Shown in pieces: positions 13,262 through 37,031 of a DNA stretch of 64,000 nt. Every line of letters begins with the position of its first letter. Position 1 is the stretch's first letter. Source of the stretch: Neophaeotheca triangularis (lineage: Eukaryota); NCBI GenBank assembly GCA_054600435.1, contig BAAIJX010000027.1, positions 124,001 to 188,000 of the forward strand, read 5' to 3'. Position numbers and translations under genes: made by a program. The notes beneath the pieces were generated by a model. That model did no database searches. It was not told the DNA's origin and was given only the letters and a program-made list of their open reading frames with translations.

Positions 13262-15014
13262 ATGCCGGGAGTACCTTCCAGTAAAGCATGCGATGGCTGT
13301 AGGAAGCAGAAAAAGAAGGTGAGGCTGCGAGCAGCCCCAACATAATCCCCTCCCCCTCTCCCTGTTTGTTCAACCGCTGATCCCCTTGTCAGTGCGATGA
13401 ATCAACTCCAGTCTGCGGACGATGCAAACGTCTGAAGCTAGCGTGTGTTGGCTCAGGGGAAAGGAGGTACAAGTTCCAGATCCGTACTAGTGGCCCAAAA
13501 AGTACGCTCCTCAAGGTGACATCTTCCGCCTCGAGCTCGACCGCCACGCCTGACTTCGTTCACGCATGCGTGCTGAGCTACCCACCGGCAAACAGCCAAT
13601 CGACTTTTTGCGCGCGCATCATCAGCACTGTGAAGTTTGACCTAGGGACGGATTTGCGGTACTCTTTGGGTATGTCTGGTCTTGTGCGGCAGGTTATGCA
13701 TTGCGCTAACGTAGATAGCGTGGTCTTCTGGAAACACTCTGTCCGAGATACCTAAGCGCTTGGGTACCAATCCGGCTCTGGATGCTGCCATGAAGGGAAT
13801 AGTTACTTGCCATGAAGATCTACTCACACGCCCTGGGGAGCTTTCACAAAGAGGTCTGCGGCAATACATGCACTCATTGAAGGTGCTGAGTAAAACTCTA
13901 GACGACCCTGCCCTTGCAACGAGCCCTAGCACTCTCGCCGCTATTTACGTACTGATGCTCACCCAGCCGTACAACGGCGTCTACGCCGATTGCTACACTG
14001 GCCATGCTGAAGGCGCTGCGAAGATCATCAAAATCAAAGGGTTCAAGTATGAGCCGAAAGACGATTTCGAAAGGAACATCATGACGTGCTTTCGAGCTCC
14101 TGTGGTGAGACATCATCATAGTAGAGGATTTGATGGAACTTGATCGCTGACTTTGTGGTTACCAGCTAATCGAGGGTCTCTTGAACCCGAACATCCGATT
14201 CTCACCCTCTGAATGGCGAGAGCTAATCGTTAACCCCCTGGAAGCGATGTCTGCAGAAAGGAAGAAGGTGGTCGGGGAACGTATGCTGTACTGTCTCTCT
14301 CGCGTGCCAGAGCTTACCAGCAAAGCGCGCAAAAGTCTCCACGACCAACGTCACGACGGTGCGTTGGCCGAAGAGGCAAATGACATCTACAACGAAGCGA
14401 TGGAATGTCTCGACATCGTCCGTGCTTCTTACCTTTCATACGAAGCCAAAGTCAGCGGGTCTGGCAACACCCGACCCAGTCCGAAACCACCAGCCACCGA
14501 CAAAGCCGCTCGCTTGGATTTTATTTATTACGCAGACAGTCAACGTTTGTACGGCCTCGCACTGTTCACAGTGGGCTACATCAACAAACTGATCCGCTCA
14601 TTCGGGATTCTCAACGCATCTCATAATCTCGAAGCCGAAGCAGCGGCGATCGTCAGCGAAATCATTGCACACGCAGAAGCATCTCGCCCTTTGAGACCGA
14701 TGGGTGCGGCTGGTGTACCGCTCTCGCTGGTCATTGCTCGGATCAATGTCAGGCACGACGATTACGCCACAATACGCTTGATAGAAGACTTGCACACTGA
14801 TTACTGCAACGACTTCCCCGGTGCGAAGGTGGAATCGATTTGGGATTTCACCAAGGATGCCGAATGGGTGGCGAATGATAAGTTTGGCGGTACGCAGGCG
14901 CATCAAGGGCTTACAGGGCTGGTGGACGAAGAGAATGATCTATGGAGTCAGGATGACTCCTGGTCGAAGGACTGTTACGGTACTATGGCCAGCGACCCAT
15001 TCGCAATGCTCTAA
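13262..15014 (+). CDS. Zn(II)2Cys6 transcription factor
   Basis: MPGVPSSKACDGCRKQKKK|CDESTPVCGRCKRLKLAC across intron 13319-13392 gives a full C-x2-C-x6-C-x6-C-x2-C-x6-C cluster. Further introns near 13671 and 14105-14165. Fungal TF middle region (H..GAAKII..KG). Confidence 0.88.
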
Positions 15015-15555
15015 GATGATCGTGACAACGTCACAGAGCTTGTAGAGGAGTACCAGAAAGCGTCTGAGGATGCTTCTCTTATTGGACAGGAGAACAAGTT
15101 CATTGGAGAGCAACAGGACAAGCAGCTCCTACTCGCAAAAAACACCCACTTCAATATTCCAGATCAGCAGGCTCGTCATGGCGACGACGAAATGAAGCGA
15201 ATGCTCGACATGTATAATCTTCAGATTCGGGCAGCTCGACGACTATATCATCAGGGTGACGGACCCTTCTACTTGCTACTCGTCTACAATGCACGCTATT
15301 CGGGCACAGAGCTGTCTGCCCCAGCTGAATTGACTTGACCGGAACTCAGCTCAGCTTTGCACCTTTTGGTATATAAGACTCCGCCTCTACATCACCTGGA
15401 TCTGTCAAGTCCCATGAACTCGACAACCGGCGTTCATCAACTGTAGAGGGTAGCCCCTGAGTTGGAGGCAATGACCCAAACCCTTGTCCTGGCAGCCAGA
15501 TCTAACCGACGCACCGACAATCTTTCCTCGGCACAAAAGGCCAAGAAATCATAGC

Positions 15556-15564
15556 AAAAAAAAA
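15556..15564 (-). terminator. RNA polymerase III T-run terminator of the 5S-like gene
   Basis: T9 on the minus strand at the 5S 3' end. Confidence 0.8.
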
Positions 15565-15836
15565 CATACAACAGGTGGGATTCCCACGTGGTCACCCACC
15601 GTAGTACTAGTCACCCGCTTCAGTGCTTGAATATGGCAGAGCAAAAGGTAGGGTAGCTATCCCGTATCGAGGTAGTAGCGTAGTACCTAGGTACCTAGGT
15701 AAGGTGTAGGTAGGTACGGAAGTACCTTTAGTTAGTAAGCGTGCTAAAGTGGCAATATCACTACGGCCACACGGCTTCGCCGCGAGCCGTAGTAATATTG
15801 TGGATGCCTTAGATTCACTGAGCTTTGGTCGTATGT
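15564..15836 (-). rRNA. 5S rRNA gene (or 5S-derived RNA) interrupted by a ~159-nt insert in loop C
   Basis: Minus strand reads ACATACGACCAAAGCTCAGTGAATCTAAGGCATCC (15836-15802), then the insert, then GCTCTGCCATATTCAAGCACTGAAGCGGGTGACTAGTACTACGGTGGGTGACCACGTGGGAATCCCACCTGTTGTATGT (15642-15564). This matches the Pezizomycotina 5S pattern and helices I-V can all be paired. Confidence 0.88.
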
Positions 15837-16605
15837 GCTCACTGTGCCTGTTTAATTGTTAATGTTCTATGATAGTTTCCCTCTATGTGCCATGATATCC
15901 ACAACAAGCCCTTGGGTTATCCAACACGGACGGCCTCGACGGCGTGCCAGCTGAAGCTGCCAGCGGGCGGCAGCGTCGAGTGCCTTCGGAACATTCCCGG
16001 TTACCTTCGAAAGACGTCGCGAACTTTAGGGTTAGAGTTGTTGTAAGCGTGGGAGTCTTGAAGACCTAGATCTTGCCTACCTTCGGACCTTCATCTTTCT
16101 TCTCGGGCTATTAGATTATGTCGTGAGACGATGCTGCATCAACACAAGTCTTGACCCTTCCAATTATTCTAGAGGAAGTCTCCAAAGTCTTGGCTAGACC
16201 GCAACAGTCCAACGCCAACCCCCTTGATCGTTTCTCTTGATCTTCTCGAGTACGCTTGAATAGTGTCTTCAGCAGTCAAAGGGATTACTCAATGCTACTA
16301 CCAAGTGTGGCGATCAGTCTGCCGTGCATTTGGGTTCCCTCATCTGCCCTTGCTTCCTTCCATTAAGCGCTTTGCCAAACTCCTCAAGGTTACACATACA
16401 GGTAGCATCTCACAAGCGGTTGGTCCAATGCCTTGCTGAAGAGGCTCCAGAACCCTCAGGGTGGTGTTGGTGCCTGATAGATGCAGGCTTGGTATCGATA
16501 TATTAGTACGTCAATTGCTGTCCCACTCTCGTCTTCGTCTCGCAACAACATCAACCTTTCTGCACAATCATAGACAGGATCAACAACCTCAACATTTGCC
16601 TTCCC

Positions 16606-18213
16606 ATGGCAGCGAGTATGCATGTACTTCCCGCCAACGAGGGACCAACAGCTCGTCCTACTGTGCCCTCCAATCCCGAGCAGCAGCTTCTAAGCAGACT
16701 CCAATCCTCTATCAATCAGGAGACGCTAGACGCAACCTTCGCATGCGGCGGCAGTATCCCAATCGCACCAGCAGGCTCGGGCGAACAAGCTCCGGGACGT
16801 ACCATCAAGCCCGTGACTATACGTTTTCAAGACCATGAGAGCACAGGTCACGTGCTGCGTTTCCCGGACAGTACCCAACTTGACCCTGATGCACTGGACG
16901 CCCTTCTGCGCGCATGCCAGCCCGCTACCTTCGGAAGAGGCGACCAGGACGTCCTGGACGCCTCGTATCGTAAAGCCGGCAAGCTTGACACCAACGCTTT
17001 CGACACGAACTTCTCTCCTTACGAGACCGGCATCATCGACAGCATTACCCAATTGCTCCTGCCTAGCTTATGTGGACATGGCGATTACAAAAGGAGTGTC
17101 CGAGCCGAGCTTTATAAGCTCAATGTTTACAGCGGGCCTGATGGCAAATTCAAAGCTCACGTTGACACTCCCAGGAGCCCGGCGCAGTTTGGAAGCTTGG
17201 TCGTTTGCCTGCCGGTCGAACATGAAGGTGACTACGGCCTGTTCTTTCTTTTCTAACGTGTTCTGAGGACTAATCTTGTCGGCGCGAAGGTGGTCAGCTG
17301 GTAGTTTGCTACGGCCGCAAGACCATCCCCTTCGACTGGTCCCTACAAGGTGGAAGAGGCAAGGATGGCGCCTCTATTCCTCAGATCCACTGGGCAGCAT
17401 TCTACAGCGACTGCCAGCACGAAGTCTTGCCAGTGACCAAAGGTCACCGCATCACCTTGACCTACAACCTATACGCAACGACTGGAGCAGGCACGCTAGC
17501 TGGCCAAGACACGGGCCTCGATGCGACCAAGCTGCCAATCTACCGGATCATGAAGCAAGCCATCGAGGACCCTGAATTTTTGTCTGACGGTACGTTGGCC
17601 CTCTTGAACCCTCCACATGAAATCGCTAATCCAGAAGTAAAGGTCGCAAGCTGGCGGCTTACCTCGCTCACGCTTATGCGCACACGAATCCTGCTATCAA
17701 TCTACTCCCACATTCCTTGAAGGGCGTGGACATGGTTCTCTACGAGACGGCTCGGGCTTTAGGGCTCCATTGCTGCGTTCGTCCGATCATGGAAGTACCC
17801 AAACCTCGCTACTACCGTGATTCAGACTCGGATAACAGGTGCGAGGGCGAGGATGAGGACGAGGATGCAACGATCAAGGCAGCCGGTGGAGTGGGCGACA
17901 TCCAAATCGGCGATAGTGAATGCCTGTCGGATGAGAAAGCGGAGTGGTTTGAAAAGAACTGGCCTTACGAGGCGCTGATCGATAGCGACGTCGTCTGGCT
18001 CAACTCTTCCAGCAACAGTCCCGAGGAGCTTGCGCTGGCGTATATGGCGGTATGTACCTCATCCGCTCTGCGGTGACTGGCAAGAGCACTAACATCTTTC
18101 TTCAGTATGGCAATGAGTCGGAAATGGAATACAAGTATTCGGCTGCTGCCCTGATCATCCAAGTGCCACCGGCAAGAATGCGATCGAAAGCTGTGAAGCG
18201 TCTCTCGGTTTAG
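16606..18213 (+). CDS. 2OG-Fe(II) oxygenase superfamily protein
   Basis: LYKLNVY..GKFKAHVDTPRS (HxD), FGSLVVCLP and WAAFYSDCQHEVLPVTKGHRITLTYNL (distal His/Arg). Introns at about 17228-17289, 17590-17642 and 18050-18105. Ends YGNESE...RLSV*. Confidence 0.88.
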
Positions 18214-19904: not shown

Positions 19905-22900
19905 ATGCCAGTTCGAAAGAAAGATGGCCCCCGCCATTTCAAAGGGGGTCATACAGGGGGTATGCATCAGAAGGTCAAGACCGTCGACGCTTCTTCTCTG
20001 AGAGCCTCCGAACAAACATCTCAAAACGAGAAGCTGGAGGCTACGCGACTCGCACACAGCATCGACGAGCGGATGGGCTTTGAACGCTTCGAGGCCGGCA
20101 AGAAGCGCGTGGGATGGCTCTGCAACATGCATTCAACGTCGTTAGAGGACGAAAAGGTTCCAGGCGGAAGGGCTGCCGTCGACTACTACTTCATCGAGGA
20201 AGACGGAGGCACGTTCAAGGCGAGCGTCGAGTACGACCCATACTTCTTCATCGCAGTAAAGAGGGGGAAAGAAGCAGAAGTCGAGGAATGGTGCCGAAGA
20301 ACTTTCGAAGGGCTTGTCAAGAGCGTGGAGAGGATGGAGAAGGAGGATCTGAAAATGCCGAATCATTTGCTTGGATTCCGGAGAACCTTCTTGCGGCTGA
20401 CTTTCGCCAACGTCAACGATCTGCTGGCTGTCAGGAGAACCATCATGCCAATCGCTGAGAAGAACAAGTCAAAAGTCAGTGTCATGGATACCTACGCCGA
20501 AGTGGCAAGCGCCAATGCTGGATTTGACATGTTCGACGATGATATCGAAAGCGGCCGGAGACCTACAGCGCTGGCAGATGCCGCGGACTTCATCGTTGAC
20601 ATCCGCGAGTATGACGTTCCATACCACGTCCGAGTGGCTATAGACAAGGATATCCGGGTCGGGAAGTGGTACAACGTCGAAGCGAAGCATGGTCGTATCT
20701 CACTATCTTGCATAGAAGAGCGATTGCAACGTGCTGACCCCATCGTCATGGCCTTTGACATCGAAACGACCAAGCTTCCTCTGAAGTTTCCAGACGCCGC
20801 CATTGATCAGGTTATGATGATATCTTATATGATTGATGGGCAAGGGTTCCTCATCACCAACCGCGAGATTGTGAGCGAAGACATTCAAGACTTTGAGTAC
20901 ACGCCCAAGCCGGAATTCGACGGACCTTTCCTTATTTTCAACGAGCCAAACGAGGAGGCTGTTCTGGAACGCTTCTTCGACTGCATAAAAGAATCTCGAC
21001 CCACCATCATATCTACCTACAACGGTGACTTCTTTGACTGGCCCTTTGTAGAAGCCAGAGCCAGCGTACATGGGATCGACATGTATGCTGAGATAGGTTT
21101 CCGCAAAAACAGTGAGGATATTTACCAATCCGACTACTGCGCCCATATGGATGCGTTTGCCTGGGTCAACCGCGATTCCTACCTTCCACAAGGATCCCGT
21201 GGTCTCAAAGCCGTGACAGTGGCCAAATTGGGCTATGATCCGGATGAACTGGACCCGGAGCTGATGACGCCGTATGCGCAAGAGCGACCTCAGACCCTCG
21301 CGGAGTACTCCGTGTCTGATGCAGTGGCGACATACTACCTGTACATGAAGTATGTACATCCTTTCATCTTCTCACTTTGCACCATCATCCCGCTAGGCCC
21401 GGATGATGTGCTGAGGAAGGGTACTGGAACACTCTGTGAAATGTTGTTGATGGTACAAGCCTATCAGAAAGAGATCATTTTGCCGAACAAGCACCAAGCT
21501 CCGAGGGAAGCTTTCTGGGAGGGTCACCTGCTCGAGTCTGAGACTTATGTTGGTGGTCATGTCGAAAGTATAGAAGCTGGTGTCTTTCGAAGCGACATCC
21601 CCAACAACTTTGCCGTTGATCCGACAGCCATTGAGGAGCTGCAGAACGATCTGGATGCGGCCCTGAGGTTCGTGATAGAGGTTGAGGAAAAGAAGAGCAT
21701 GGACGACGTCGAGAACTTCGATGAAGTCAAAGCCCAGATTTTCGCGAAACTGCAACAGCTCAAGGATACACCGAACCGTAGCGAGCGGCCTTCAATCTAC
21801 CACTTGGACGTTGCGTCCATGTATCCTAACATCATGACGACGAATCGTTTGCAACCAGACAGCATGATCGACGAGTCCGATTGCGCGGCCTGCGATTTCA
21901 ACCGGCCTGGCAAAACCTGCGACCGACGTATGCCGTGGTCGTGGCGAGGTGAATTTCTCCCGGCGAAACGGGATGAATATAACATGATTCGACACGCTCT
22001 CGAAAACGAGCGCTTCCCCGCTCGTAACCCCAATGGGCTTGCGCGCGCTTTTCAGGACTTGAGCCTGGACGAGCAGACAGGTTTGGTGAAGAAGCGCCTA
22101 ACGGACTACAGCAAGAAGATCTACCACAAGATTCACGACGCCAAAACCATTGAGCGAGAGGCAATCATATGTCAACGTGAGAACCCCTTCTACGTTGACA
22201 CAGTCAAGGACTTCCGAGATCGACGGTACGACTTCAAAGGCAAGCAGAAAGTCTGGAAGAACAAGACGTCGGATCTTGAGAATGCTGGAGCTGCCACCCT
22301 TGAGATTGAGGAGGCCAAGAAGATGATCGTACTGTTTGACTCGCTACAACTCGCACACAAGGTTATCTTGAACTCCTTCTACGGCTATGTAATGCGAAAA
22401 GGCAGTCGATGGTACAGCATGGAGATGGCAGGTGTCACGTGTTTAACGGGAGCCCGAATCATTCAGATGGCCAGGCAGCTAGTCGAGCGCATCGGGAGGC
22501 CGTTGGAGCTTGATACTGATGGTATCTGGTGTATACTGCCTGCCACATTCCCGGAAAACTTCTCCTTCAAAATGAAAAATGGCAAAAAGCTCGCCATCTC
22601 GTATCCTTGCGTCATGCTGAACCACCTGGTACACGACAGCTTCACCAACCACCAGTATCAGACGCTCAAAGACCAGAGCACATTCCGCTACGAGACACAC
22701 AGTGACAACACCATCTTCTTTGAAGTGGATGGACCATACAAGGCCATGATCCTACCGACGAGCAAAGAAGAGGACAAGAACTTGAAGAAACGTTATGCGG
22801 TGTTCAACAACGATGGCAGCTTAGCTGAGCTCAAGGGATTCGAGATCAAGAGAAGAGGCGAGCTGAAACTTATCAAAATCTTCCAGCAACAAATATTCAA

Positions 22901-25900
22901 GTTCTTTCTCGAAGGCAGCACCCTCACGGAGACCTATGCTTCGGTTGCAAAAGTTGCGAACAAGTGGCTCGACGTGCTACACAGCCATGGCTCGACTCTT
23001 GCTGACGAAGAGCTCATCGATCTTATTTGCGAGAACAAGAGTATGACGAAGACTCTGGAGGAGTACGGTGCGCAGAAGAGCACGGCAATTACGACCGCCA
23101 AGCGTCTGGCAGAGTTCTTGGGAGAGCAAATGGTCAAAGACAAGGGTCTCAACTGCAAGTACATCATTTGCTCGCGACCGAGAAACTCTCCTGTGACCGA
23201 TCGTGCCATTCCGGTCGCCATCTTCAGTGCTGAGGAGAGTGTCAAACGCCATTACTTGAGAAAATGGATGAAAGAAGATCCTGGAGACATGGACCCTCGA
23301 AACACCATCGACTGGGACTACTACTTGGAGCGTCTGGGCTCTGTCATCCAAAAGCTCATCACGATTCCCGCGGCTTTACAGAAGGTACGGAACCCTGTTC
23401 CACGCGTGCCGCATCCCGACTGGCTTGAAAGAAGGATCCGAATAAAGGACGATGTGTTCAAGCAAAAGAAGATGACGGACATGTTTGAGAAGAAACCACT
23501 CAGCGAGCTGGATCCTAACGCCTTGAATCCACGTCTCGCAGGCGATCTTGAGGACTACGGTAGCACACAAATGGCGAAGCTCACCAAGCCAGCTGCCTCG
23601 AAACTTATTAGCTCACAAGCGCAAAAGCGAAAAGTTGAAGAGGCAGCTCCCGCGAATCCGTATGACGCTCTGCCAGCTGAGATGCCTTCAATTACAGAGG
23701 ACTACCAGGGCTGGCTCAGGTATCAAAAGCAGAAGTGGAAGATTCAACGGCAAGCCCGCAAGCGTCGCCGTCAGCTTTTCGGCGAGAAACGGCAAGACGC
23801 TACCGACTCCATAGGAACGCTATTCCGGGCTCAGGCTGAAGTTCTCTACACGGCGGATTGGCAGATCCTGCAGCTGCAGGAGACTGAGATACCAGGAGAG
23901 GTCAAGGCGTTCGTGCTGATTGGCCAAAAGGTGCACCAGATCAAGATATTAGTGCCTCGACAAGTGTGGCTGAATCTCAAAGAAGAAGAGCTACCAGATG
24001 TGGACGTCAAGGGCGTGAAAGCAGAGAAAGTCGTCAACTGGACGCTACCGAACGGACACCCTTCAGCGCACCTGTTCAAGCTGGTGATGCCAGAGCAGGT
24101 GTACGTCAAGGAAACTGAAAAGCTGGATATGCTTTTCAACCACCCCAGCGTCGAAGGCGTGTACGAAAAGCAGGTGCCACTGAACATACGAGCCCTGCTA
24201 GATCTTGGTTGCAGCTGCACATTCGACGCCAGTCAAAGAGGTGTGCTAGGCAAAGGTCTCGAGCAGGGTTTTGACCTTTCTGCACTTCACACCGTTCCAT
24301 CGAAGCAGCCTTACATGTCAAGCGCGGATCTAAGCTATCTTGCATTGTATCACATCAGCACCGGCGAACGTCAGATTTACGCGCTGTTCTCGTCGACCCA
24401 GCCCGAGGCGAAGATCATCGTGCTGAACCGCGCGAGGAGCGAGCAAGGCATGCCCAACGTCGATCGCATCTACAAAGACATGCTGGAACGCAAACTTGAA
24501 GAAGCGGGTGGCCAGCCGTGGCAAGAAGTCATTGAATACCCTGACAGCATGCACTTCAAGACAGTCCAGGTCTCGACGCATAGACGTGCGCTGCAGGAGC
24601 TCGCGGACGGAGTCAAGAAAGTGCAAAAAGAAGAGACGAAGCCCGTCATGCTCGTTTTGCAGAGCCAGAGCGCGCAACTACTGATCCATGACTTGCCGAT
24701 CTTGCAGGGCATGCCTCTCCTCAAGCTTAAACCACAAGAAAACGACAAGGCATTGCCGCCACTCGGGTGGCAGAACTTTGTTGCGAAAACTCTAGTGAGC
24801 CATTACCTTGACCTCGGATTGTGGGTTTCGCATTTGGTTGCTTTCTCCAGGTATGGCAACGTGCCACTGTGCAACCTCGAGAGCGACGATCCTCGCTTTT
24901 TGATCGACATTGCGTACGCCAGGCGGCTTCAAAAAGAGCGCATTGTACTTTGGTGGTCGGAAGATGCCCGACCGGATCATGCAGGCCATGAGAAGGACGA
25001 CGTTCTCAGCGCCATGGAGTCTATCGAGATGCCTTCAGTCAATACGCCAGGAACATACTCCTCCGTTTGCATCGATCTGTCGGTAAAGAACCTGGCTATC
25101 AACACCATATTGTCATCGGCGGTTCTGAACGATGCCGAGGGAAGCAGCGATCCCATTGGCATTTCTGGAGCCGGCGCGCAAGAGGATGCTCTCGACGAGA
25201 CCAACCAGAACCTCCAGTCTGAGAATTCGTTCGCCACTGCCGGAGTCGATGCATTACGAGCCATGGTCCGTTCCTGGTGGCAAGAGGCGTGTTCTAGCAA
25301 GGGCAGTACCATGGCCGACGTACTTGTCCAACATCTGGTCCGCTGGGTGGAAAGTCCGAGCTCGCGACTGTTTGATCGCAATCTGCTCTACTACGTGCAA
25401 ATGATGTCTCGGAAAGCTCTTCAGCAATTGATGTCTGAGTTCCGGCGAGTGGGATCTCACATTGTCTTTGCTTCACCAGGCCGTCTACTACTCCAGACGT
25501 CAAAGGCCGAAGTCGGAAATGCTTATGCTTACAGCCAGTACATTCTCAAGACAGTGTCATCGAAGCCCGCATTCCACTTCCTCGACCTGGCCATCACGGA
25601 ATACTGGGACTATCTAGCGTGGTACGACGAATTCAACTATGGTGGCAAAGGATGCACTGAGGTTGTCGAAGCGGATAACCAGAGACTGGACACTATCATG
25701 CACTGGCAGTTTGCGACTTTCCTGCCTTCGATACTGCAGCCAAACTTCAACGACTGGATTGTCGAGTACATTGAGCTGATGCATCAACGCAAACGTCCAA
25801 TGGGTTCGGATGGCACTCAGCGGCCAACCCAACTGCCCATACACGCTGCCGTGTTCAACTCTGAAAAAGAAGACCAAACCACCCCTGGCAATGTGCTGGC

Positions 25901-26588
25901 AAAGTCATTCTCAAAACCCCTACACAAGCAGATCGCCGCGCTCATCAAGCGACAGCGTACGGAAGCCATGCACGAAGAACTAGCCGCAGACTGGACGTTC
26001 CCGACAATGCCCGGCTCACACCTACGCATGCAGAACCCAGTACTCGAGCTCGTCAAGAGCATCATGCAAGTGCTGAGCCTGGACAAGTCCGTGCAGCTCG
26101 AAGCCAGACTATTGCGAAAGGAGCTCCTCCAGCTATTCGAGATCCGAGAATTCAGCGCTGAAGGTGCTTTCAGCAACCCCAGCACCAGCCTGACGATCAA
26201 ACAGCTTAGCTGCCCGGATTGTTGCGTGCCCAAAGACATCGACCTGTGTCGTGACGCCGACTTGACGCCTACGGGGCAAGCGCCAACGCTGGCGCCGAAG
26301 TGCGACAACTGCGATCATGTCTTTGACAGATTGGGCATTGAAGAGCGGTTGCTGGCAGACGTGCAGATGGTGGTTGTACGATGGATGACGCAGGACCTCA
26401 AGTGCAAGAAATGCGCAAGGATACGGAGTAATGAATTCATGGAGCACTGCGCTTGTGCTGGCGAATGGGTTGCTACGGTGAAGAGAGATGACATTACGAA
26501 GAAGTTGAGGGTTTATGAGGCCGCTGCGAACTTTTATGGGTTGAGGATGCTGGGTGGCGTTGTTGAGGATGTTTTGAAGGGCATGTAG
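19905..26588 (+). CDS. POL2: DNA polymerase epsilon catalytic subunit A
   Basis: Intronless 2227 aa. ExoI FDIETTK, polymerase motifs DVASMYPNI, KVILNSFYGY and ELDTDGIW, CysX CAACDFNRPGKTC, and C-terminal Cys clusters. Confidence 0.98.
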   Translation: MPVRKKDGPRHFKGGHTGGMHQKVKTVDASSLRASEQTSQNEKLEATRLAHSIDERMGFERFEAGKKRVGWLCNMHSTSLEDEKVPGGRAAVDYYFIEEDGGTFKASVEYDPYFFIAVKRGKEAEVEEWCRRTFEGLVKSVERMEKEDLKMPNHLLGFRRTFLRLTFANVNDLLAVRRTIMPIAEKNKSKVSVMDTYAEVASANAGFDMFDDDIESGRRPTALADAADFIVDIREYDVPYHVRVAIDKDIRVGKWYNVEAKHGRISLSCIEERLQRADPIVMAFDIETTKLPLKFPDAAIDQVMMISYMIDGQGFLITNREIVSEDIQDFEYTPKPEFDGPFLIFNEPNEEAVLERFFDCIKESRPTIISTYNGDFFDWPFVEARASVHGIDMYAEIGFRKNSEDIYQSDYCAHMDAFAWVNRDSYLPQGSRGLKAVTVAKLGYDPDELDPELMTPYAQERPQTLAEYSVSDAVATYYLYMKYVHPFIFSLCTIIPLGPDDVLRKGTGTLCEMLLMVQAYQKEIILPNKHQAPREAFWEGHLLESETYVGGHVESIEAGVFRSDIPNNFAVDPTAIEELQNDLDAALRFVIEVEEKKSMDDVENFDEVKAQIFAKLQQLKDTPNRSERPSIYHLDVASMYPNIMTTNRLQPDSMIDESDCAACDFNRPGKTCDRRMPWSWRGEFLPAKRDEYNMIRHALENERFPARNPNGLARAFQDLSLDEQTGLVKKRLTDYSKKIYHKIHDAKTIEREAIICQRENPFYVDTVKDFRDRRYDFKGKQKVWKNKTSDLENAGAATLEIEEAKKMIVLFDSLQLAHKVILNSFYGYVMRKGSRWYSMEMAGVTCLTGARIIQMARQLVERIGRPLELDTDGIWCILPATFPENFSFKMKNGKKLAISYPCVMLNHLVHDSFTNHQYQTLKDQSTFRYETHSDNTIFFEVDGPYKAMILPTSKEEDKNLKKRYAVFNNDGSLAELKGFEIKRRGELKLIKIFQQQIFKFFLEGSTLTETYASVAKVANKWLDVLHSHGSTLADEELIDLICENKSMTKTLEEYGAQKSTAITTAKRLAEFLGEQMVKDKGLNCKYIICSRPRNSPVTDRAIPVAIFSAEESVKRHYLRKWMKEDPGDMDPRNTIDWDYYLERLGSVIQKLITIPAALQKVRNPVPRVPHPDWLERRIRIKDDVFKQKKMTDMFEKKPLSELDPNALNPRLAGDLEDYGSTQMAKLTKPAASKLISSQAQKRKVEEAAPANPYDALPAEMPSITEDYQGWLRYQKQKWKIQRQARKRRRQLFGEKRQDATDSIGTLFRAQAEVLYTADWQILQLQETEIPGEVKAFVLIGQKVHQIKILVPRQVWLNLKEEELPDVDVKGVKAEKVVNWTLPNGHPSAHLFKLVMPEQVYVKETEKLDMLFNHPSVEGVYEKQVPLNIRALLDLGCSCTFDASQRGVLGKGLEQGFDLSALHTVPSKQPYMSSADLSYLALYHISTGERQIYALFSSTQPEAKIIVLNRARSEQGMPNVDRIYKDMLERKLEEAGGQPWQEVIEYPDSMHFKTVQVSTHRRALQELADGVKKVQKEETKPVMLVLQSQSAQLLIHDLPILQGMPLLKLKPQENDKALPPLGWQNFVAKTLVSHYLDLGLWVSHLVAFSRYGNVPLCNLESDDPRFLIDIAYARRLQKERIVLWWSEDARPDHAGHEKDDVLSAMESIEMPSVNTPGTYSSVCIDLSVKNLAINTILSSAVLNDAEGSSDPIGISGAGAQEDALDETNQNLQSENSFATAGVDALRAMVRSWWQEACSSKGSTMADVLVQHLVRWVESPSSRLFDRNLLYYVQMMSRKALQQLMSEFRRVGSHIVFASPGRLLLQTSKAEVGNAYAYSQYILKTVSSKPAFHFLDLAITEYWDYLAWYDEFNYGGKGCTEVVEADNQRLDTIMHWQFATFLPSILQPNFNDWIVEYIELMHQRKRPMGSDGTQRPTQLPIHAAVFNSEKEDQTTPGNVLAKSFSKPLHKQIAALIKRQRTEAMHEELAADWTFPTMPGSHLRMQNPVLELVKSIMQVLSLDKSVQLEARLLRKELLQLFEIREFSAEGAFSNPSTSLTIKQLSCPDCCVPKDIDLCRDADLTPTGQAPTLAPKCDNCDHVFDRLGIEERLLADVQMVVVRWMTQDLKCKKCARIRSNEFMEHCACAGEWVATVKRDDITKKLRVYEAAANFYGLRMLGGVVEDVLKGM

Positions 26589-36942: not shown

Positions 36943-37031
36943 AGCTCCCCACCTGGTTCGAACAAGTGACCTTAGGATAGTAGCATTAACTTCAACTGCA
37001 ATCCCACGCTCTACCGCTGAGCTAGAGGAGC
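36943..37031 (-). tRNA. tRNA-Cys(GCA) with 17-nt intron (36979-36995)
   Basis: Acceptor stem GCTCCTC/GGGGAGC with U discriminator, D arm GCTC-AGCGGTA-GAGC, anticodon stem TGGGA/TCCTA with TT-GCA-G^A loop, and T arm ACTTG-TTCGAAC-CAGGT. T6 and T13 runs downstream. Confidence 0.95.

Follow-up and report, generated by a model that had tools for sequence, protein, structure and literature searches.

The 64,000-nucleotide stretch of DNA analyzed here (the window) spans positions 124,001 to 188,000 of contig BAAIJX010000027.1 from the fungus Neophaeotheca triangularis, and carries on its minus strand a 5S ribosomal RNA (rRNA) gene that is split in loop C. This gene probably belongs to a small lineage of 5S copies, approximately 4–5 of roughly 60–210 copy equivalents, in which the loop C letters CGTCC are replaced by a non-coding insert of 159–163 bp that contains a strong hairpin. 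The locus is likely to fall in a class of 5S copies that have been disabled by insertion, and within this class a single origin followed by spread is tentatively favored. The initial annotation had offered three readings of the locus, namely an expanded 5S rRNA, an RNA polymerase III (Pol III) RNA that uses 5S as a chassis, and an element that targets 5S genes. A 5S-specific insertion fits best, as the insert lies at a CCCGTCC site, while the expanded 5S and the chassis RNA gain no positive support, given that CGTCC is deleted, the internal control region (ICR) is shifted by 154 bp, and the scaffold fold is disfavored.

The coordinates of the split gene are collected in Table 1. The 5′ part starts with ACATACGACC and finishes with GGCATCC, and the 79-nt 3′ part runs from GCTCTGCC to GTTGTATGT. 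The intervening insert starts with ACAATATT and finishes with CCTACCTTTT, which gives it the end letters AC..TT and the junctions GGCATCC/ACAATATT and CCTACCTTTT/GCTCTGCC. The gene closes on a run of nine T (15564–15556) and totals 273 nt, compared with approximately 120 nt for a 5S with an intact, conserved loop C. An AT-rich stretch lies upstream and, by analogy, may serve as the TFIIIB site. Inspection of the sequence bears out the placement and anatomy initially given for the 5S parts, the insert, the AT-rich stretch and the T9 run. The size of the replacement follows from a 152-nt canonical 5S contig from a public sequencing run (X7), which has no differences from the window over 15558–15642 and 15802–15831 and covers six T of the terminal run. 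This contig reads GGACG on the plus strand (CGTCC in 5S sense) between the two parts, so that the canonical order is GGCATCC-CGTCC-GCTCTGCC. Consequently, the earlier estimate that about 159 nt replace about five nucleotides of loop C proves exact, with 159 nt substituting for CGTCC. Run X7 is only guessed to be RNA and bears a different organism label, and its 152-nt contig has adapter letters at both ends; it covers the 5S parts, not the insert, and carries no information on expression. As a separate observation, 9 of 10 positions of the insert's 3′ junction, TTTTGCTCTG (15637–15646, read in 5S sense), agree with the gene's own terminator and the letters that follow it, TTTTGCTATG (15550–15559), which may be chance or may reflect microhomology used when the junction formed.

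Table 1. Features of the split 5S rRNA gene and its surroundings (window positions; a point in the strand column means neither strand)
Feature	Position	Strand	Basis
Upstream flank, itself repeated in the genome	15837..16083	-	X1 depth 2-3x single copy
AT-rich, TATA-like stretch ATTAACAATTAAA, -27 to -15	15851..15863	-	sequence
5′ part of the 5S rRNA gene (nt 1-35) with strands of helices I/II/III	15802..15836	-	sequence and contig match
159-nt insert substituting for loop C CGTCC	15643..15801	-	X7 joint 15642->15802
48-nt hairpin at insert 5′ end; 22 pairs, one bulge, GAA loop	15753..15800	-	fold and repeat analysis
18-nt perfect palindrome in TACC/TAGG-rich low-complexity stretch	15684..15701	.	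opposite-strand self-match
T4 at insert 3′ end; weak Pol III stop at most	15643..15646	-	sequence
5S 3′ part, nt 41-119; ICR, loop E, helices IV/V	15564..15642	-	RF00001 truncated match
Remainder of T9 run, Pol III terminator	15556..15563	-	sequence

The identity of the two parts was also probed with Rfam. At the gathering score there is no 5S match anywhere in the window, and at a loose threshold the locus yields a local match of 32.4 bits to the 3′ part (the gathering score of RF00001 is 38). The initial annotation had suggested a search of both halves with this model. The 3′ part, submitted alone, scores 38.8 bits as a 5′-truncated match (model positions 42–120, E 4e-7), and the 35-nt 5′ part has no Rfam match alone and is too short by itself. 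The only other loose match at the locus is SNORD123 (E 2.2), a chance hit. Helices I–V had been drawn by hand in the initial annotation. When the two parts are joined by script through CGTCC, the fold reproduces helices I, II with its bulged A, and III, and helices IV and V, one non-standard pair included, are borne out by the Rfam alignment of the 3′ part. A Chaetomium thermophilum 5S construct contains the same 20-mer GGCATCCCGTCCGCTCTGCC, as given in the available part of its description (PMC4538828), which indicates that the lost CGTCC letters are conserved across fungal classes. The split copy lacks the CGTCC of this 20-mer, so its conserved loop C is not intact.

The number and distribution of insert-bearing copies were examined in Logan contigs of four public runs (X1, X2, X7, X8) compared with the window over 15200–16200. 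Run X1, which contains 0.83 of the sampled words, has a 215-nt contig that covers 15614–15824 at a depth of 520.6, approximately four times that of contigs in single-copy flanks (128.7–133.7). Relative to the window, this contig has one more ACCT unit at 15645, carries the substitutions A>G (15659) and C>G (15686), and shows two indels of one base each within 15687–15690. The contig crosses both junctions into the 5S parts, demonstrating that the variant copies also sit in 5S genes at the same site. The differences listed between insert copies all lie within 15645–15690, and none of those listed falls in the hairpin or the 5S parts, with a further 26 letter differences and four indels outside this listing. 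A second run from a different study and year and with a different organism label (X2, depth 2.5) contains a 153-nt contig covering 15672–15824 with the same three variant letters. The summed depth of the 5S 3′ part, approximately 27,800, is the source of the estimate of copy equivalents, which depends on the bin used, and insert-bearing copies are a small minority of these. Other 5S contigs differ by 4–10%, indicating several 5S sequence variants per genome. In addition, further contigs break at 15641 (two in X1, four in X8) and at 15802 (three in X8) and continue into unrelated sequence instead of CGTCC. The sequence beyond the 3′-part breaks is pyrimidine-rich in 5S sense. The contigs at both boundaries, whose consensus agreement is low (0.52–0.82), may represent truncated 5S genes or additional events at this site.

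These results uphold the view that the locus is not an ordinary, decaying single pseudogene, as the 5S parts are letter-perfect and the insert-bearing form is multi-copy and is present in a second, independent run. It is scarcely credible that misassembly created the insert, or that it is a single-copy accident confined to this assembly. Repeats of the 5S type are prone to misassembly and X1 may be the window's own sample, but the X1 contigs carry the insert and both junctions at about four times single-copy depth, and the same variant appears in X2. The same two observations contradict a lone copy or an artefact as named in the initial annotation.

The insert sits at the CCCGTCC motif of loop C, a motif that matches direct repeats listed for Starships of Fusarium. 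Starships are giant tyrosine-recombinase transposons of the Pezizomycotina, and in the available part of a survey 5S rDNA accounts for 23% of 222 curated insertion sites, with at least five distinct target sites, and direct repeats of 6–16 bp match 5S motifs (PMC11162782). Table S7 of the same source, as far as it is available, gives the repeat cccgtcc for at least five Fusarium elements, one of which has cccgtc as its other repeat, and ggacggg/gacggg for a sixth. It also gives cggacgggatgcccagt as the insertion site of a Lasallia element, and the reverse complement of that site, ACTGGGCATCCCGTCCG, is the 5S loop C region. Judging from the motif, the Fusarium sites presumably lie in 5S genes as well; the rows themselves do not state so. 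For the Starship Voyager, the insertion point lies 20 bp from where the 5S gene begins at its 5′ end, according to the portion of its description available (PMC9156397).

The split copy resembles insertions of the Starship families Enterprise, Arwing and Voyager in that a target site in the coding region of a dispersed 5S gene of the Pezizomycotina is hit and the gene is split, in the recurrence of CCCGTCC as a Fusarium direct repeat, and in loop C being the insertion site of the Lasallia element (PMC11162782 and PMC9156397, available parts). In contrast, the Starships in these sources are 27–700 kb in length, encode a DUF3435 captain, and have the core repeated on both sides, whereas here 159 bp without a gene are accompanied by a loss of 5 bp. 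The CCCGTCC core is lost at both junctions and is not duplicated. No DUF3435 captain was found in a Pfam scan of 22 open reading frame (ORF) translations from the window (19 of the 33 ORFs of at least 200 aa and three shorter ones near the locus), which returned housekeeping families only. The 8-mers of the insert ends do not occur among the terminal inverted repeat (TIR) and direct repeat strings in the available part of table S7, except that two Fusarium rows contain tacctttt in an unrelated context. The insert was consequently rejected as a Starship or simple Starship remnant, based on the length of 159 bp, the absence of a captain among the translations scanned, and the loss of the core on both sides.

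The insert itself is highly structured. It folds at -56.1 kcal/mol (z -5.0), with none of 200 shuffles folding equally well, and the full 273 nt fold at -96.9 kcal/mol (z -5.1). Within the first 49 nt of the insert, a long and mostly unbranched hairpin abuts the 5′ junction. Because three of its pairs are of the G-U type when read in 5S sense, the sense RNA of the hairpin is the more stable one (-33.1 kcal/mol, against -23.3 kcal/mol for antisense RNA), while the whole insert folds equally well in antisense (-58.2 kcal/mol). The remainder of the insert is rich in TACC/TAGG, harbors the repeat families D1, I2 and I3, and ends in TTTT. No T run inside the insert is longer than four, and a run of four T is a weak terminator in fungi. 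Neither the insert, nor the 5S gene, nor its upstream flank recurs within the window.

The claimed absence of classical hallmarks was confirmed. Inspection of the sequence reveals no GT..AG ends, and repeat analysis reveals neither an inverted repeat that pairs the insert ends nor a target duplication flanking them. At E<=10, Rfam assigns the insert to no family, group I and II introns and ribozymes included, and ARAGORN finds no tRNA-like part over 15300–16300. Several identities were considered for the insert and rejected. Derivation from 5S is not supported, as 52 to 497 of 500 shuffled sequences scored at least as high in local alignment. A tRNA-like head of a short interspersed element (SINE) is opposed by the ARAGORN result. 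A Helitron-like end, which would have a hairpin followed by CTRR, does not fit on manual reading, as the hairpin lies directly at the junction and there is no CTRR. A DNA transposon with TIRs, or a miniature inverted-repeat transposable element, would have the end-joining inverted repeat and target duplication that are lacking. Spliceosomal, tRNA-type, and group I/II introns are opposed by the AC..TT ends, by a bulge-helix-bulge that could not be drawn manually, and by the Rfam result. Finally, a retro-copy of a separate Pol III gene ending in UUUU was considered; the X1 depth over the hairpin core (15744–15777) equals that of the single junction-spanning contig, with no other copy at least 80% alike there.

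The absence of TIRs, target-site duplication and GT..AG ends fits filler DNA rather than a classical transposon. The anatomy, the exchange of five letters, the multi-copy state, the occurrence in a second sample and the match of the site to Starship repeats are shown; we infer an origin by break and fill, the way in which the insert spread, and a loss of function. First, one 5S copy would have been broken at CCCGTCC, the motif that matches Starship target repeats in other Pezizomycotina. Next, the break would have been sealed with the loss of 5 bp and the gain of foreign or filler DNA. Finally, the filled allele would have reached a few more 5S copies by gene duplication, ectopic gene conversion, or both, the processes by which dispersed 5S families of fungi are shaped. 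The insert-bearing copies are probably not working 5S genes, as the conserved loop C letters are gone and the internal promoter lies 154 bp too far from the start.

Several observations weigh against this scenario. By our estimate, a random insertion with a 5-nt loss would touch a 7-nt motif in about one of ten cases. Tyrosine recombinases normally leave no double-strand breaks, and with no core at the junctions the link to Starships is consequently positional only. Run X1 may, as stated, come from the same sample as the window. The flanks of the other insert-bearing copies are not visible in the contigs, so that a single origin is deduced and not seen. The 215-nt X1 contig ends at 15824, 7 nt before the expected end of the shared 31-mers, and the window's flank contig reaches 15795. 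Logan contigs being simplified graphs, this points only tentatively to a difference among insert-bearing copies near 5S position 12, one that fits independent insertions as well as later mutation. The three sense-strand G-U pairs of the hairpin and the variation of the tail by one ACCT unit would be easier to explain with an RNA-borne element than with filler. The two 5S parts are undamaged, and the upstream AT-rich stretch and the T9 terminator have been kept. Loop C positions 34–37 are, in the available part of a study of bacterial 5S expansion segments, the least obstructed site for such segments (PMC7812874).

Some of these points would be accounted for if the insert were a small, non-autonomous element specific to 5S loop C and each copy an independent insertion, an explanation that is rather unlikely but is the main rival. 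Such an element might perhaps move as an RNA copy by target-primed reverse transcription, which can produce a fixed small target deletion and a 3′ tail with variable repeats; alternatively, repair of cut 5S genes could copy it into them ('passive homing'). Consistent with this explanation, several copies of the insert exist, always in one and the same 5S position and with identical junctions, the position coincides with a motif that serves as target repeat for other elements, and the contigs that break at 15641 and 15802 suggest other same-site events, with the consensus agreement given above. The likely backbone difference near position 12, the tail that varies by one ACCT unit, and the greater stability of the hairpin as sense RNA point the same way. 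Known site-specific elements offer a precedent: R2 is a retroelement of 28S genes with a small target deletion, and Mutsu is a retroelement in animal 5S genes. Like these, the insert occupies one fixed position within an RNA gene of many copies, its junctions are identical, a few target letters are deleted, and the 3′ repeats vary in number; it differs in that it has no reverse transcriptase or endonuclease gene and no known partner, its host is a fungus, and there are only about 4–5 copies. Of the features expected of a site-specific retroelement without long terminal repeats or its SINE-like derivative, namely independent insertions at one site, a 3′ tail and a reverse-transcriptase partner, the contigs show the shared site and the variation of the tail by one ACCT unit.

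Other findings argue against a mobile element. The insert has no TIR, target-site duplication, poly(A), tRNA-like part or coding capacity, and the small number of insert-bearing copies and the equally good antisense fold of the whole insert do not favor one. Identical junctions are also trivially expected from a single origin. Scans of metagenome contigs for a 22-nt word of the hairpin and for the two 5S edges spaced by N{140,170}, and scans of prokaryote-genome and viral contigs, returned 0 matches to an insert homologue, in collections that contain little or no fungal DNA. We know of no autonomous partner for a small 5S element, and no description of such an element was found in the open literature searched.

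That the locus gives rise to an enlarged, working 5S rRNA (about 273 nt) or to a Pol III RNA on a 5S scaffold, in which the insert forms an expansion segment of loop C, is improbable. In its fuller form this explanation predicts a eukaryotic 5S transcribed in full, with an expansion segment that projects from loop C atop the central protuberance in a sub-population of ribosomes, and is slightly harder still to credit. The scaffold helices are intact, both parts are identical to canonical 5S, the AT-rich stretch and the T9 run are in place, the T runs in the insert are limited to four, and the insert opens with a long, mostly unbranched hairpin. Moreover, the hairpin and 5S parts are without change between copies among the differences listed. 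The position is also suggestive, as the bacterial expansions occur at the loop C site noted above (34–37; PMC7812874, available part). Bacterial and archaeal expansion segments are comparable in that the clostridial examples also occupy loop C and begin with a long, self-folding first helix. They differ from the present case in that they are shown as ribosomal RNA and, among those covered in the part of the source available, interrupt no conserved motif (PMC7812874). The split copy, in turn, has lost conserved letters, belongs to a eukaryotic host whose Pol III promoter is internal, and contains an insert in competition with helices II and III.

Further lines of evidence make an enlarged 5S doubtful in addition to the deletion of five conserved loop C letters. 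The ICR is 154 bp further from the natural start and the TATA-like stretch. In yeast, the TFIIIB site occupies -31 to -9, the ICR lies between +50 and +94, and the distance between the two is measured by the tau131 subunit of TFIIIC, according to the available part of the source (PMC10245719). By analogy with yeast, the shift would place the default Pol III start, if there is one, inside the insert. For the 273-nt RNA, the minimum free energy (MFE) is 2.2 kcal/mol below that of the canonical scaffold, and helices II and III have p 0.07–0.15, because in the MFE structure 5S nt 12–30 pair with the insert segment that follows the hairpin. An expansion segment would be expected to leave the core without loss and to lack complementarity to it, and here five letters are lost and the insert pairs with the core. 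In addition, the insert is present in only a small share of the 5S copy equivalents. No eukaryotic 5S expansion segment and no short insert in a fungal 5S was found described in the open literature searched. The archaeon Halococcus morrhuae reportedly has a 5S rRNA that bears an expansion segment.

Removal of the insert from a Pol III precursor, as if it were an intron, would yield either a re-ligated 119-nt 5S or a 5S in two pieces. This is very improbable, even though the two parts match 5S exactly and could be clamped together across the insert by helices II and III. The ends are not GT..AG, no group I/II intron or ribozyme family is matched at E<=10, and no bulge-helix-bulge can be drawn by hand, the ACAA at the start of the insert being unable to pair with GCUC of the 3′ part. 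Furthermore, splicing at the insert ends would still leave CGTCC missing, and to our knowledge no such splicing occurs in 5S. The insert does contain a perfect TACTAAC box (15731–15737, minus strand), with AG/GTAC 5 nt further on, and this box is the other feature that would favor an intron. The box may be chance (approximately 1 in 100 per strand for a 7-mer, a post hoc estimate) or filler from the intron-exon border of a gene.

Returning to spread from a single disabled copy, the upstream flank indicates how 5S loci multiply in this genome. Two 24-kb X1 contigs match the flank over 15808–16077 (30 other letters, 17 gaps) and 15909–16028 (8 other letters, 10 gaps), or at roughly 83–90%, and the X8 depth over the flank reaches approximately 8x single copy at 15982–16015. 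The flank also contains a GC-rich inverted repeat, CTCGACG...CGTCGAG (15980–15935). The existence of these paralogues indicates that 5S loci here duplicate as DNA together with their flanks, and 5S loci of this fungus seem to share, or to move with, upstream sequence. The split copies are similar to the variant and pseudogene lineages of dispersed fungal 5S genes in being dispersed, in having several variants per genome, and in duplicating with their flanks, and they differ in that their mark is an internal replacement of 159 bp and not point changes or truncation. Fungal 5S genes reportedly evolve by birth and death (Rooney and Ward 2005). As an observation on the locus in X8, which has the organism label and study of X1, the flanks 15246–15486 and 15962–16198 are approximately 95% alike at depths of about 55–60 and 90, and one contig joins 15837 to 15986 beside the 5S 5′ part, with 148 nt skipped or replaced. 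On this sequence comparison, the locus of a related strain, or a paralogue, appears to differ upstream of the gene.

The surroundings of the split gene are ordinary single-copy genes. The locus is flanked by ORFs at 13381–15338 and an ORF at 16507–17253, followed by COX20 and DNA polymerase epsilon. The ORFs at 13381–15338 have a cysteine-rich start reminiscent of a fungal zinc-cluster factor and no Pfam match. The catalytic subunit of DNA polymerase epsilon is encoded by an uninterrupted ORF of 2,226 aa (19905–26585, plus strand); its first 500 residues are 84% identical to those of Neohortaea acidophila, the best named relative, and 96% to another protein. The polymerase puts the fungus among the Dothideomycetes, close to black fungi of the Teratosphaeriaceae type, in a part of that class with sparse sampling. 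The sole Rfam match in the window at the gathering score is a tRNA gene on the minus strand (36943–37031, 48.1 bits), in which approximately 20 extra nt near the anticodon loop denote an intron.

In filamentous fungi, Starships are documented to land in dispersed 5S genes, and no description of the fate of 5S copies that have been hit, or of small elements that use the site, was found in the open literature searched. The recurrent replacement of the exact core of the target by 159–163 bp could be a scar protecting the 5S copy from renewed integration. Alternatively, the insert could be the first small element in fungi that is specific to 5S genes. A much less likely option is an expansion segment of a eukaryotic 5S, which if true would be the first in a eukaryote and a parallel to the loop C expansions of clostridia. 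Split copies of this kind escape standard 5S annotation, as Rfam is blank at the gathering score, and consequently they may distort both 5S copy counts and surveys of Starship target sites.

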